Part shown: positions 47,914 to 51,477 of the stretch, one piece after another
How the letters are laid out: the number at the start of each line of letters is the position of its first letter
Numbering within the stretch: the stretch's first letter is position 1
Notes under the pieces: generated by a model
The model's input: only the letters and a program-made list of their open reading frames with translations
Told to the model about the DNA's origin: nothing
Databases searched by the model: none
DNA from: Acidimicrobiia bacterium
GTDB taxonomy: Bacteria > Actinomycetota > Acidimicrobiia > Acidimicrobiales > CATQHL01
Assembly (NCBI GenBank): GCA_009835395.1
Contig: VXXM01000006.1
Span: 27,632 to 91,631 of the forward strand
Direction: 5' to 3'
DNA: 64,000 nucleotides
Made by a program: the position numbers and the translations under genes

Positions 47914-48696
47914 GTGACCAGCGCTCGCCGGCCGCTCATCAGCGGCAACTGGAAGATGCACCTCAACCACTTCGAGGCCATCAGTCTGGTGCAGAAGCTG
48001 TCGTACGCCCTGACCGACGCCGACTACGCGGCCGTCGACGTGTGCGTGCATCCGCCGTTCACCGATCTGCGCTCGGTGCAGACCGTGCTGGACATCGACG
48101 ACATCCCCATCCTGCTGGGGGCCCAGCACTGCCATCACGAGGATTCCGGGGCGTTCACCGGGGAGGTGTCGCCGGCGCTGCTGGCCAGGCTGCAGGTCCG
48201 CTACGTGATCGTGGGGCACTCCGAGCGGCGGGCGCTGTTCGGCGAGACCGACGAGGGGGTCAACAGCAAGGTGCATGCCGTGCTGCGACACGGCATGACG
48301 CCGATCCTGGCGGTGGGGGAGACGCTCGAGCAGCGGGAGGCCGGCGACACCACAGAGGTCGTGCTGGGTCAACTGACCGCCGGCATGCAGGGCCTGACGC
48401 GCCAGCAGGCGGCGGGCCTCGTCGTGGCGTATGAGCCGGTGTGGGCGATCGGCACGGGCCGGGTGGCGAGTCCAGGCGACGCCCAGGAGATCTGCGCCGA
48501 GATCCGTCGGCAAGTCGGAGAGTCCTTCGGCGCGGCCGCGGCGGAAGGCGTGCGCATCCAGTACGGCGGCTCGGTGAAGCCGGTCAACGCCGCCGCGCTC
48601 ATGGCCGAGCCGGACATCGATGGAGCCCTGGTCGGCGGGGCGAGCCTCGACGCCGACAACTTCGCCCGCATCGTGCAGTACCGCCTCGCCACCTGA
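47914..48696 (+). CDS. tpiA: Triosephosphate isomerase
   Basis: GNWKM, GHSERR, AYEPVWAIGTG, YGGSV, LVGGASL; AGGAGG before GTG 47914. Confidence 0.97.
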   Translation: MTSARRPLISGNWKMHLNHFEAISLVQKLSYALTDADYAAVDVCVHPPFTDLRSVQTVLDIDDIPILLGAQHCHHEDSGAFTGEVSPALLARLQVRYVIVGHSERRALFGETDEGVNSKVHAVLRHGMTPILAVGETLEQREAGDTTEVVLGQLTAGMQGLTRQQAAGLVVAYEPVWAIGTGRVASPGDAQEICAEIRRQVGESFGAAAAEGVRIQYGGSVKPVNAAALMAEPDIDGALVGGASLDADNFARIVQYRLAT

Positions 48697-48741
48697 CCCT
48701 CGAGGCCCGGAGAGACGCCCGGCGCTGGTATCGTTCCTGCG

Positions 48742-48972
48742 ATGTTCATCCTGGCGCTCGTCCTGCATGTGGTGACGACGGTCGGTGTCGTGCTGCTGGT
48801 GCTGCTGCACAGCGGGCGCGGCGGCGGCCTCTCGGACATGTTCGGTGGCGGCCTGGGTGCCTCGGCGGCCGGCTCCACGGTCATCGAGAAGAACCTGGAC
48901 CGCATCACGATCGTGGCGGCGCTGATCTTCGGCTTCGTCACGCTGGCGCTCGCCCTCATGATGGACACCTGA
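48742..48972 (+). CDS. secG: Preprotein translocase subunit SecG
   Basis: LLHSGRGGGLSDMFGGG, EKNLDRIT; follows tpiA. Confidence 0.93.
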   Translation: MFILALVLHVVTTVGVVLLVLLHSGRGGGLSDMFGGGLGASAAGSTVIEKNLDRITIVAALIFGFVTLALALMMDT

Positions 48973-48994
48973 GCCGGATCAGACCGGTACCCCC

Positions 48995-49080
48995 GTCGGA
49001 GTGGCGGAATTTGGTAGACGCGCATGGTTGAGGGCCATGTGCCCGCTAAGGGCGTGGGGGTTCAAGTCCCCCCTCCGACA
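48995..49080 (+). tRNA. tRNA-Leu(GAG)
   Basis: Acceptor GTCGGAG/CTCCGAC, D-loop GAATTTGGTAGA, anticodon stem CATGG/CCATG with GAG at 49030-32, long variable arm, GGGGG-TTCAAGT-CCCCC; CCA not encoded. Confidence 0.96.
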
Positions 49081-49111
49081 CGCTGCGAACGTTTGCGGCG
49101 CCAGCACCCCC

Positions 49112-49199
49112 GTCGGAGTGGCGCAGTATTCGATGGACGCGCATGGTTGAGGGCCATGTGCCCGCTAAGGGCGTGGGGGTTCAAGTCCCCCCTCCGACA
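49112..49199 (+). tRNA. Second tRNA-Leu(GAG)-like copy with non-canonical D-loop (variant or pseudo-tRNA)
   Basis: Identical to copy 1 except D-loop CAGTATTCGATGGA; anticodon at 49149-51. Confidence 0.7.
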
Positions 49200-49596
49200 C
49201 GCTGCAAGTTGATTTGCAGTCGGTTTCCCGATGTCTTTGTTGTTACAACTACTTTATTGTGCCAGAGTTGGTATCGAGAGAAATACAAGAAGCACCGATT
49301 CATTGTCTCTATGGCTTATGAAGATGGGTCGCCATCTGAGGATCCAATACAATGAGTATTCGTCGATGAATCCAGTAGTCGGTGTGGCTGTGTCGACCCC
49401 GGCGGGGGGCGGCTCCAGGCGTTGCGGCATGCGCGACGGCATGCAGGAGTTGGACGGGTTCACCGCGCGTGCCGGCGACGGATCGAGTCGCTGACGACAC
49501 TCAAATCGCCTGCTGGCAGACGGTATCGAACTCTTCGTCGCGTCGCCACGGCAACCGGTGGGACGGGGAGGGGCCGTGCCGCTCGATCCATCTATC

Positions 49597-49750
49597 GATA
49601 GCAACTATCAGTGCCATAAACGTGGCGAGCACTCGTCTGCCAATACTAAATTCTAGTTGCTACTATTTGTCAGATGACCCGGTGTCAGCGAACTACTAAG
49701 AGAACTTGTATTGCACGTATTGAGAAGTCATTAGCACTATTGTGCAGGTC
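49597..49750 (+). promoter_or_regulatory. AT-rich promoter/operator region of the TetR gene
   Basis: GATAG-CAA-CTATC (49597-609), inverted TAGTTGCTA (49654-62), TAGCACTAT (49732-40), -10 TATTGT (49738-43). Confidence 0.5.
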
Positions 49751-50425
49751 ATGCTATCGGACAAGGACACTGAACCTCTTGTAGGAGACGGCTCCGATCG
49801 TCGGAGTAAGTCGGACCAAACGACTCAACGGCTCTTGGACGCCGCAGCCGAGGAGTTCATGGAGCACGGCTACGAGGGCTCCCGAATCAGCCGGATCGCG
49901 CGCCGTGCGGGACTCACCTCGGGCGCCGTCTACGCGCGGTGGCCCCACAAGCCTGACGTACTAGCGGCGGCGCTCGACCATATCCTCCGGCAGGAACTCC
50001 CCGAGGAGTTCGGGGCCGAGCGGTTCGGGCTCAACCCGTTCGTGAGCGACCCGCCGGATCCTGTAGCCATCATGAGACTGCTGGGAGCAGGCCGGCTCGA
50101 CCGCGGCGAACATCGAGACGTGATGGTCCAGGCGTTCGGAAGCGCCCGCAACAACGAGGCGATCAGAGACTGCCTGGTGGGGTTCTTGAACGAGGAGGCC
50201 CGGCGGCTCTGCGGACTCATCGAGGTGGGGCAGGAACACGGATACTGCGCAGAGGAGTTCAGTGCCGCAGCCCTCACGCTGCTGTGGCACTCGATCATCC
50301 TCGGCTCCCAGCTGCTGGTCTCCGCAGGGCTCGATGAGCGCTACGTCCCGGACGATGACGACTGGACCGCTCTGCTCTGGACGGTGGTCTGTGCCGTCTG
50401 CCCCGGTGCACAGCCGATCGAGTAG
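49751..50425 (+). CDS. TetR/AcrR family transcriptional regulator
   Basis: RLLDAAAEEFMEHGYEG...IARRAGLTSGAVYARWPHK HTH. Confidence 0.9.
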   Translation: MLSDKDTEPLVGDGSDRRSKSDQTTQRLLDAAAEEFMEHGYEGSRISRIARRAGLTSGAVYARWPHKPDVLAAALDHILRQELPEEFGAERFGLNPFVSDPPDPVAIMRLLGAGRLDRGEHRDVMVQAFGSARNNEAIRDCLVGFLNEEARRLCGLIEVGQEHGYCAEEFSAAALTLLWHSIILGSQLLVSAGLDERYVPDDDDWTALLWTVVCAVCPGAQPIE

Positions 50426-50484
50426 CCGCGCCACCGAGCGAAGCGACAGCCGTACTCGGAGGACGTGACCACTAGCCTGAGGCT

Positions 50485-51477
50485 GTGGGAGCCGCGACCG
50501 GATCCGGGGAGGCAGCGAGGAACGGTCACGTCGTAGCCGTTACCGATCACCCTTTCCCTGATCTCGAACCGACGCGAGAGGTGCTCGCCCCGTTGGGCGT
50601 GGAGATCCGGATGTCCGCATCGGTCGGTGCGGCCGATGTCCTGGCCGTGGCGCAGCATGCCGATGCGGTGATCAACACCTACGCCCAGCTGCCCGCCGAG
50701 CTGGTCGACCGCTTCGAGCGGTGCCGGATCATCGCCCGCACGGGCATCGGGATCGACACGGTGGATCTGGCGGCCGCCACGGCCAGGGGAATCGTCGTGA
50801 CGAACGTCCCGGAGTACTGCGAGGACGAGGTCTCCGATCACGCCATGGCGCTCATGCTGGCGCTGGCCCGCAACGTGACGCGAGGCAACACGCTGGTGCA
50901 CGGCGGCAGTTGGGACCTCGCCGCCGTCAAGCCGATCTACCGGGTGCGGGGGCGCACGGTCGGTCTGGTGGGATTCGGCAAGATCGCCCGGCTCGTGGCC
51001 GCCAAGGCCCAGGGTTTCGGGCTGGGTGTGCTGGCGTTCGACCCGTACGTGGATCCCGCCGACGCCGCCGCGCTGGGTGTCGAGCTGGTGCCGTTAGAGG
51101 AGTTGCTGGCGCGCTCGGACTTCGTGTCGGTCCACGCACCCCTCACGCCGGAGACCCGTCACATGATCGGCGCCGAGGCGCTGGCGCTGATGCGGCCCGA
51201 GGCCGTGGTCGTCAACACCGCCCGGGGCGGGCTGGTGGACGTCGTCGCCTTGGCGGAGGCGCTGGACCGCGGGGCAATCGCCGGGGCCGGGCTCGACGTG
51301 CTCCCCGACGAGCCGCCGGGCGCCGATATGCCCCTCTACGGCCGCCCGAACGTGATCCTCACGCCGCACACCGCCTTCTACTCTGAGGAGTCGGTGCTGG
51401 ACCTCCAGGTCAAGGCCGCCCAGCAGGTGGCCCTCGTGCTTACCGGCCAGGACCCCGTCTACCCGGTCAACCTCTAG
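50485..51477 (+). CDS. D-isomer-specific 2-hydroxyacid dehydrogenase (CtBP/SerA-like)
   Basis: GLVGFGKIA, VNTARG, GLDV..EP, TPHTAFYS. Confidence 0.92.
   Translation: MGAATGSGEAARNGHVVAVTDHPFPDLEPTREVLAPLGVEIRMSASVGAADVLAVAQHADAVINTYAQLPAELVDRFERCRIIARTGIGIDTVDLAAATARGIVVTNVPEYCEDEVSDHAMALMLALARNVTRGNTLVHGGSWDLAAVKPIYRVRGRTVGLVGFGKIARLVAAKAQGFGLGVLAFDPYVDPADAAALGVELVPLEELLARSDFVSVHAPLTPETRHMIGAEALALMRPEAVVVNTARGGLVDVVALAEALDRGAIAGAGLDVLPDEPPGADMPLYGRPNVILTPHTAFYSEESVLDLQVKAAQQVALVLTGQDPVYPVNL

Follow-up and report, generated by a model that had tools for sequence, protein, structure and literature searches.

The window analysed here, a stretch of 64,000 nucleotides (nt) from the 95-contig metagenome-assembled genome (MAG; genome G000) of an uncultured Acidimicrobiales bacterium, carries two tandem copies of tRNA-Leu(GAG), the second of which has an altered D-loop. 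tRNA genes were detected with ARAGORN and with Rfam family RF00005 (gathering score 29). Both recover the two copies, whose starts lie 117 nt apart as a preliminary description of this DNA had reported, and the Infernal-type scoring proposed there gave 51.7 bits for copy 1 and 42.7 bits for copy 2, the latter also above the gathering score. The first 12 nt (GTCGGAGTGGCG, comprising the 5′ strand of the acceptor stem, U8, G9, and the 5′ strand of the D-stem) are identical between the copies, as are the last 74 nt, which begin with the D-stem 3′ strand and end with the discriminator A73. As the preliminary description had stated, all of the change lies in the D-loop, which reads GAATTTGGTAGA (12 nt) in copy 1 and CAGTATTCGATGGA (14 nt) in copy 2. 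The 7-base-pair acceptor stem, the anticodon arm, the long variable arm, and the T-arm are all present in copy 2, and the cloverleaf is the minimum-energy fold for both copies, the variant included.

The repeat is a 117-nt unit of leader, tRNA, and trailer, with 31 nt between the copies. The flanks are shared beyond what had been listed: 9 of the 11 nt upstream agree, and downstream both copies continue with CGCTGC and then a hairpin of related, homologous sequence. Copy 1 is the genome's only standard gene for anticodon GAG and has no encoded CCA; across 55 related loci (labelled L), many of which were reached by looking up the exact SecG protein and three SecG variants in public assemblies, this canonical gene is invariant except in the variable loop and at one D-loop position.

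The pair follows a gap-pgk-tpiA-secG operon on the + strand, a gene order kept in all of the related loci, and the secG stop codon stands 22 nt before copy 1. A search of 48600-49900 found no sigma-70-like site, and hence none between secG and the tRNA. Because the gap is this short and contains no promoter-like site, the tRNA units are probably co-transcribed with secG. Coordinates of these features, together with the arrays and lesions described below, are collected in Table 1.

Table 1. Features of the tRNA-Leu(GAG) locus (window positions), arrays in related loci, and lesions on variant copies
Feature	Position	Strand	Basis or description
tpiA (triosephosphate isomerase)	47914..48696	+	Pfam PF00121, E 2.6e-91
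secG	48742..48972	+	Pfam PF03840
Native 5′ leader of copy 1, CCGGTACCCCC	48984..48994	+	Same leader, with 0-1 change, before the single tRNA of genus relatives
Canonical tRNA-Leu(GAG), copy 1	48995..49080	+	ARAGORN; Rfam 51.7 bits
Canonical 12-nt D-loop, GAATTTGGTAGA	49007-49018	+	Sequence reading
Inner spacer hairpin (trailer of unit 1), CGCTGCGAACGTTTGCGGCG	49081..49100	+	Fold -10.7 kcal/mol; homologous spacers in all other arrays
Leader of unit 2, CCAGCACCCCC	49101..49111	+	9/11 positions as in the copy 1 leader
Variant tRNA-Leu(GAG)-derived copy 2 (pseudo-tRNA)	49112..49199	+	ARAGORN; Rfam 42.7 bits
Derived 14-nt D-loop, CAGTATTCGATGGA	49124..49137	+	Same or closely related loop in 22 variant copies, 8 lineages
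Terminal trailer hairpin, CGCTGCAAGTTGATTTGCAGTCGG	49200..49223	+	Fold -10.9 kcal/mol; native trailer type of single-copy L045, L171, L189
Terminator-like hairpin with T-rich tail	49219..49242	+	Consensus scan: 1 site vs 0.5 expected, weak support
Lineage-specific 1.28-kb islet	49201..50480	+	Low-GC stretch, further stretch, TetR gene
TetR-family regulator	49742-50425		TetR_N domain
D-isomer-specific 2-hydroxyacid dehydrogenase	50485..51477	+	Pfam PF02826, PF00389; conserved right anchor of the slot
Array L041			1 canonical + 1 variant; 3.19-Mb long-read contig
Array L047			1 canonical + 2 variant; long-read contig
Array L049			1 canonical + 3 variant; 2.41-Mb long-read contig
Array L074/L168 (same record)			1 canonical + 2 variant
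Array L172	1755-2230 (of L172)		1 canonical + 3 variant; long-read contig
Array L174	1755-2590 (of L174)		1 canonical + 6 variant; long-read contig; sample and downstream flank as in L172
Array L178			1 canonical + 1 variant; long-read contig
Array L180			1 canonical + 1 variant; 2.95-Mb long-read contig
Array L186			1 canonical + 1 variant
Lesion, L041 (only variant copy)	At flank breakpoint		G70A and A73C, broken acceptor end
Lesion, L047 copy 3			T-stem mismatch
Lesion, L049 copy 3			T/V-arm deletion
Lesion, L049 copy 4			G9A
Lesion, L074 both variant copies			A35G, giving anticodon GGG; G31A in one

The variant D-loop

To place the altered loop among ordinary ones, we compared the position of its GG with that in the 45 genuine tRNAs of the window genome. 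In all 45, the GG is separated by 3-6 nt from the preceding 5′ strand of the D-stem and by 2-5 nt from the 3′ strand that follows it; in the genome's five other tRNA-Leu genes these spacings are 5-6 and 4 nt. The corresponding values for copy 2 are 11 and 1 nt, making it an outlier. The copy 2 loop has neither A14 nor G18G19 at canonical spacing, and so falls short of the D/T elbow of a functional tRNA-Leu. The comparison set leaves out 13 over-long ARAGORN calls (86-97 nt; for example Gly(acc), Pro(agg), Arg(gcg), Arg(tcg), and two SeC) found in the whole genome; these have degenerate D-arms and, as candidates on the basis of ARAGORN only, look like false positives of a 70% GC genome.

The loop had been described as rewritten, with the conserved G18G19 displaced. 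In a 3′-justified alignment, however, the variant loop reads as CA followed by GTATT(C/T)GATGGA, 8 of whose 12 positions match GAATTTGGTAGA, and the allele CAGTATTTGATGGA matches the canonical loop at 9 of 12; identity at this level has a P value of about 0.001-0.006, uncorrected for the three offsets tried. The step from canonical to variant loop comprises 3-4 substitutions, with the A14 and G19 equivalents among them, and a 2-nt insertion, and the window allele itself corresponds to CA plus the canonical loop with 4 substitutions. With 8-9 of 12 positions still those of the canonical loop, the variant loop is thus best regarded as decayed, not rewritten, and the GG near its end as a new GG rather than a shifted G18G19. 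In extent, the canonical-variant divergence (about one third plus an indel) resembles that between inner and terminal trailers, in which ∼60% of the aligned columns match.

A search for a template of the loop elsewhere in the genome gave as its longest match a 16-mer in a coding gene on contig C18, which we attribute to chance. An exact 22-mer of the loop has one match in public collections, which falls within a coding sequence of a Rhodothermales MAG and not in a tRNA, and none in viral contigs or in JGI metagenome contigs. A degenerate loop pattern gave 26 matches, only one of which (L074) is a tRNA array; the rest have no ARAGORN tRNA and were assumed to be fortuitous. A candidate template within the islet downstream of copy 2, AGTATTCGTCGATGAA (49354-49369) against the loop sequence AGTATTCGATGGA, was rejected, as 28 of 500 composition-preserving shuffles scored as well. 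The likeness there consists of an 8-mer plus GATG after a TCG repeat, and AGTATTCG recurs at about 49354.

Variant-looped arrays in related genomes

The arrangement recurs in L043 (GCA_009840475.1), an independent assembly that matches the window at 100% identity from copy 1 through the spacer to copy 2; copy 2 is interrupted there by a 10-N gap with a 55-nt overlap on its flanks, the trace that a k-mer join would leave if it was not merged. In L042, exactly one 117-nt unit is missing relative to the window and all else is identical, a state that a crossover between copy 1 and copy 2, or an assembly collapse, would produce. Beyond these, a search of relatives for the variant D-loop, as the preliminary description had proposed, located it in 1-6 copies per array and in at least eight lineages (Table 1). 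In every array the first unit is canonical and all of the later units are variant-looped, arranged head-to-tail with a period of 117-119 nt; the Rfam scores of all variant copies are 32-43 bits and those of the canonical copies 51.6-51.7 bits. When TpiA of four array lineages was looked up, no further independent assemblies of the same strains came to light.

All of the arrays have in common (i) the loop motif CAGNNNTYGATGGA, (ii) the junction GGCG/CCGGCACCCC, and (iii) homologous inner spacers. Since the junction and the derived D-loop are shared throughout, the arrays point to a single duplication of the 117-nt unit, an event that would predate the diversification of the sampled genus. For its leader the unit has the genus-specific secG-tRNA spacer, and the window's terminal trailer is that of the single-tRNA loci L045, L171, and L189; the unit therefore consists of native chromosomal DNA. 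In L074 the last unit continues through its trailer into the leader-like GCCGGCGCC, and the sequence suggests that the original duplication may have used the short repeat CGGCGCC present on both sides of the gene.

The distribution of the arrays is scattered. Most relatives have one gene, and 40 species representatives carry a single canonical one; the tandem-junction pattern had no match among the species representatives of GTDB, so that all others in this collection either lack the array or have it collapsed. Array-bearing and single-copy loci can be as close as 0-0.5%, as seen for L186 (two copies) and L189 (one copy), at a distance of 0.5%, and for the window (two copies) and L042 (one copy), at 100% identity; the number of extra units ranges from 0 to 6 and varies even between near-identical genomes. 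On a tpiA-secG tree of the 55 loci, the array label needs at least eight changes, at least six of which are forced by well-supported branches. A single origin combined with this distribution therefore implies that the array is highly unstable and has been lost repeatedly, whether or not homologous recombination also transferred it. L172 (four tRNA units) and L174 (seven units) come from one sample (ERZ25069711), with shared flanks and 8-9x coverage, and their difference reflects either copy numbers that vary within one population or the uncertainty of long-read assembly.

Within a genome, the units resemble each other closely. The inner spacers show 0-2 differences within a genome, as against 27% between genomes, and the variable-arm allele (CTAA or TTAC) is always that of the same genome's first copy. 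Because the uniform spacers have no tRNA function, this likeness reflects homogenisation and not selection on each copy. The arrays thus display the marks of concerted evolution in a tandem array, namely a constant period with native flanks, within-genome likeness, and copy-number polymorphism, and the sequences point to concerted evolution of units with an essential first copy. There are also hints of short 5′ conversion: lineage-specific leader bases are shared between copy 1 and variant copies in L074, in L186, and in copy 2 of L172.

Between lineages, the variant loop takes the form CAG-NNN-T-Y-GATGGA in all arrays, with six alleles and with variation only at positions 4, 5, 6, and 8. We evaluated its divergence against tpiA four-fold sites and inner spacers as the neutral yardstick. 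Per-site divergence between array lineages is 0.16 for the variant D-loop, 0.17 for the leader, 0.24 for the tpiA four-fold sites, and 0.27 for the inner spacers, and the proportion of variable sites in the loop (4/14) does not differ significantly from that in leader plus hairpin (16/31; Fisher 0.20). By these measures the variant loop would drift at about the neutral rate; no covariation inside it was apparent by eye.

Outside the loop, 6 of the 22 variant copies (8 lineages) carry extra lesions at positions that are invariant in the canonical gene, compared with 0 of 55 canonical copies (Fisher 3e-4), so the variant copies are not under purifying selection equal to that on the canonical gene. 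Most arrays, with the exception of L041 and L074, nonetheless have at least one variant copy that is unchanged outside the D-loop. The L074 copies (L074:2121-2326; LXNI01003425.1) bear a GGG anticodon on a tRNA-Leu body that keeps A73 and the long variable arm, and ARAGORN calls one of them tRNA-Pro. Leucyl-tRNA synthetase (LeuRS) does not read the anticodon; an L074 GGG RNA, if charged by it, would deliver leucine at CCC/CCU (proline) codons. That a fixed, leucine-charged GGG tRNA would misread proline codons argues that RNAs of the L074 type do not take part in decoding.

A different change is seen in L175 (GCA_026702815.1), where a 16-nt direct duplication of the tRNA 5′ end, GTCGGAGTGGCGGAAA followed by GTCGGAGTGGCGGAATTT, precedes the canonical tRNA (L175:1754-1785). 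Either a micro-duplication arose here separately, at the same position of the D-loop, or the assembly slipped.

Explanations of the variant copies and the downstream slot

We consider copy 2, somewhat more likely than not, to be a disabled paralogue of tRNA-Leu(GAG) within a tandem array that is old and unstable and that unequal exchange has kept looking fresh. The first copy would take part in this exchange, by unequal crossing-over or short gene conversion, and so keep the 74-nt 3′ and 12-nt 5′ blocks identical, with exchange taking place mostly in the 74-100-nt identical 3′ block and less in the 12-23-nt 5′ block. The D-loop, as an indel-bearing heterology between these exchange zones, would not be crossed and would be the sole part of the tRNA to record the true age of the copy. 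Later units would keep the drifting loop, by now 3-4 substitutions and a 2-nt insertion away from the canonical one, while the first unit would stay canonical because products without a canonical copy lose the only CUC/CUU decoder. The variant RNA probably shares a transcript with secG and tRNA-Leu, from which it may be released in the shape of a tRNA; since it lacks a normal D/T elbow, its charging with leucine by LeuRS, or its use in decoding, would be unlikely, and the array would persist through the dynamics of expansion and contraction rather than through decoding. The preliminary description had argued that change concentrated in one loop is not what neutral decay predicts. That argument fails given homogenisation, the uniform spacers, and the near-neutral rate of the loop: on the reading proposed here, the change would be confined to one loop because homogenisation spares only the indel-bearing loop.

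Several observations weigh against a disabled paralogue. In the variant loop, 10 of 14 positions are invariant across 8 lineages, and the loops of the window and L041 are identical despite 30% four-fold divergence. Likewise, the 5′ 12 nt of the variant units vary between lineages at 0 of 12 sites, compared with 16 of 31 in leader plus hairpin (Fisher 0.0013), a pattern that calls for selection acting on the fold or, alternatively, for conversion of short patches by copy 1; in the L172/L174/L180 lineage, the leaders of copy 1 and of the variant copies differ at 4 of 11 positions, and wholesale homogenisation on the 5′ side is therefore not evident. No array with two canonical copies was seen. 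The array persists in at least eight lineages that are ∼24% divergent at four-fold sites, although tandem repeats of 117-nt size are normally lost fast, and the presence of 3 and 6 variant copies in one population (L172 and L174) could reflect selection on dosage. Finally, some of the lesions (L047 and L049) come from low-coverage long-read contigs (9-25x) and are possible consensus errors, leaving those of L074 and L041.

The alternative that draws most on these observations is a selected, non-decoding tRNA-like RNA, that is, a decoy or regulator that needs the cloverleaf, but not a normal elbow, anticodon, or charging; we regard it as tentative and rather unlikely. Such an RNA would have its elbow disabled, would be processed like a tRNA without being charged or used by the ribosome, and would have its dose set by 0-6 units, a scheme that we can propose only with reserve; its target might be, for example, a tRNA-binding enzyme, a toxin, or RNase P. 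Selection would account for the invariant 5′ strand of acceptor and D-stem and for the invariant loop positions, and further for the maintenance of the array across the genus despite frequent loss, the amplification to six identical units in L174, and the occurrence in most arrays of a variant copy intact outside the loop. A precedent is the tRNAOther of Bacillus cereus, an island-flanking pseudo-tRNA that has a phenotype without a role in translation (PMC3399842). On the other hand, loop divergence is not significantly below neutral, the array is missing in most lineages, including neighbours 0.2-0.5% apart, and the sole variant copy of L041 has a broken acceptor end. Moreover, no conserved partner gene adjoins the array, as the downstream genes differ by lineage, and neither of the partner enzymes looked for that use Leu-tRNA outside translation, cyclodipeptide synthase and leucyl/phenylalanyl-tRNA-protein transferase (L/F-transferase), was found in the genome. 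The suggestion of a functional non-canonical tRNA or decoy, made in the preliminary description, is accordingly retained in its decoy form, as a minority possibility, and not for a normal decoder.

A normal decoder would be a working extra tRNA-Leu(GAG) isodecoder for CUC/CUU, with its odd D-loop tolerated by LeuRS, which we think quite improbable. The intact stems, anticodon loop, variable arm, T-arm, and A73 of copy 2 would suit such a role, as would its Rfam score well over threshold, its minimum-energy cloverleaf, and the fact that several arrays contain only otherwise intact copies. Nevertheless, the GG stands 1 nt from the 3′ strand of the D-stem, as opposed to at least 2 nt in the 45 tRNAs and 4 nt in the five tRNA-Leu genes, and the A14 and G19 equivalents are mutated in the 3′-justified alignment. 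In E. coli tRNA-Leu, LeuRS reportedly reads tertiary elements of the D-loop and elbow together with A73, as Asahara and co-workers are said to have found in the 1990s, and these identity elements speak against charging. The isodecoder is further opposed by the L074 GGG copies, which if leucine-charged would misread proline codons, by the unequal incidence of lesions on variant and canonical copies, and by the sufficiency of a single gene in most species.

Very improbable, in our judgement, is the proposal that the two copies are what remains of attL and attR after the collapse of an element with a near-complete tRNA in its attP. This tRNA is indeed an integration hotspot, with AlpA-type or other islands right after its 3′ end in many relatives, and the 81 nt of perfect identity between the copies, from the D-stem to 6 nt past the 3′ end, resemble an att block. 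Copy 2 is, however, full length, with a genus-specific chromosomal leader and 5′ half; only 31 nt of native-type trailer and leader separate the copies, and arrays reach six units. No integrase was found nearby with Pfam, the genome contains no other tRNA 3′ fragment, and neither it nor seven same-genus genomes hold a further repeat of the tRNA 3′ end (at least 17 nt in the search of those seven). Where a single-copy genome does bear an island, no variant copy stands at the island's far end or elsewhere, and genuine att repeats of tRNA-Leu(GAG) in other families are 3′ fragments of 21-26 nt. The preliminary description had also proposed looking for the variant loop in phages and integrative and conjugative elements; it is absent from viral contigs, phages, and plasmids, and phage and plasmid BLAST searches returned only ordinary tRNA-Leu similarity over the 3′ two-thirds of the tRNA. 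A scar is thus largely refuted by the full-length copy, the native flanks, and the lack of both an integrase and a mobile carrier of the loop.

An assembly artefact, for instance a strain bubble linearised into a false repeat, might be suspected in a 95-contig MAG, given that the otherwise identical L042 has one copy and that L043 has a gap in copy 2, but it has a negligible probability and was rejected, as the 20-nt inner spacer has a unique sequence that only reads can have supplied, L043 independently yields the same copy 1, spacer, and copy 2 base for base with a 55-nt overlap around its gap, and the canonical-plus-variant layout recurs in L041, L047, L049, L172, L174, L178, L180, L074, and L186, long-read contigs of other lineages among them.

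Copy 2 had also been placed at an island border, with AT-rich accessory DNA directly after it, a description that holds only in part. The low-GC stretch is there (42.8% GC at 49201-49380, as against 66-70% around it), but it belongs to a short, 1.28-kb islet without an integrase. L042 and L043 have the islet at 100% identity, and L049 and L171 have part of it; 49201-49800 has no homologue in 40 relatives. Around the array there is no integrase (Pfam) and no other Rfam family; downstream come the TetR gene and then the dehydrogenase, which adjoins the tRNA or array in L012, L018, L019, L041, L045, L074, and L181. The slot between the tRNA or array and the dehydrogenase (49201-50484 in the window; also L041-L050 and L161-L190) contains a different gene in almost every lineage, and is a strong gene-turnover hotspot. 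Its occupants include TetR, a metallophosphoesterase, a TPP enzyme, a TENA/THI-4 protein, AlpA-type islands, an SNF2 helicase, SWM-repeat giant proteins, an rve transposase, and AIPR; in L074 the slot is empty.

In many relatives, an island begins right after the discriminator, in many cases with a conserved left end (containing GACAAGCGATCAAATAGCCTCTGACCTGCGTAAA) and with AlpA ∼180 nt away (for example L050 and L161-L170). The form GAC(A/C)AGCGATCAAATAGCCTCTGACCTGCGTAAACAGTGATC abuts the discriminator in L005/L046, L010, L013-L015, L017, L050, L161-L170, and others. Islands insert after whichever tRNA copy stands last. Elsewhere in the window genome, contig C61 (2-1340; L032) starts inside a P4-type tyrosine integrase (domains Arm-DNA-bind_3, Phage_int_M, and Phage_integrase), followed by an AlpA gene with 85% DNA identity to the AlpA that lies ∼180 nt from tRNA-Leu(GAG) in several relatives; in the window genome the element is situated near tRNA-Lys and tRNA-His instead.

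Comparison with known systems

If copy 2 is a disabled paralogue, the locus illustrates how a disabled gene copy can look new: exchange with an essential neighbour erases its decay except in a heterologous patch, and such a patch is open to being mistaken for a targeted rewrite. The variants also call for caution in annotating isodecoders in MAGs, as tRNA finders call them good tRNA-Leu and once tRNA-Pro, and the genus-wide, copy-number-variable tRNA-derived array that they form is probably collapsed by short-read assemblies. Were the array instead a selected pseudo-tRNA, a tRNA body would have been turned into a non-translational RNA with its dosage set by repeat number, the first such RNA family described in Acidimicrobiia. 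In the literature, we came upon no account of full-length tRNA copies that have the D-loop as their sole disabled part and form arrays of 1-6 across a genus.

The class closest to these arrays among those described is that of the tRNA-linked repeats (TLRs) of E. coli (Egan & Landy 1978; Rudd 1999), which lie downstream of tRNA genes, with 1-5 per locus, have no more than the last 18-19 bp in common with the tRNA or rRNA before them, and for the most part lack a known function (PMC8144298). Like TLRs, the units described here (1-6) are tRNA-derived and stand directly downstream of a tRNA in the same transcription unit; unlike TLRs, each is a complete tRNA with its own leader and trailer that differs only in the D-loop. 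The closest precedent for a function is tRNAOther, the pseudo-tRNA of Bacillus cereus, which flanks an island, is reported to be inactive in translation, and has a phenotype, showing that a copy of this kind may still serve the cell (PMC3399842). Like the present copies, it has the shape of a tRNA and borders on variable or island DNA; unlike them, it is a single diverged gene, whereas the present copies are tandem near-copies of an adjacent essential tRNA.

Islands and prophages that integrate into tRNA genes reportedly leave partial tRNA att repeats, grouped into sublocation classes that Williams is said to have set out in 2002. As with those repeats, the same tRNA is a hotspot in relatives and the repeat stands between the tRNA and variable DNA; in contrast to them, being 3′ fragments that end at the crossover site with the element in between, the copies here are full length, have a 5′ leader, and are 31 nt apart. 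The non-proteinogenic tRNA-Gly of Staphylococcus, which serves the cell wall, is charged and has a tRNA-dependent transferase as its partner. The variant copies resemble these isoacceptors in having altered tertiary nucleotides of the D/T-loops, which would divert them from the ribosome, and differ from them in that no cyclodipeptide synthase or L/F-transferase was found and in that the anticodon and acceptor end are not conserved in all arrays. Concerted evolution by unequal crossing-over or gene conversion is familiar from rRNA operons, tandem tRNA genes, and satellites, and the arrays share with these their within-genome identity, their polymorphic copy number, and the spread of a lesion through one array (A35G in L074). 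What distinguishes them from such concerted arrays is that the D-loop is exempt from homogenisation and that the first unit always differs from the later ones.

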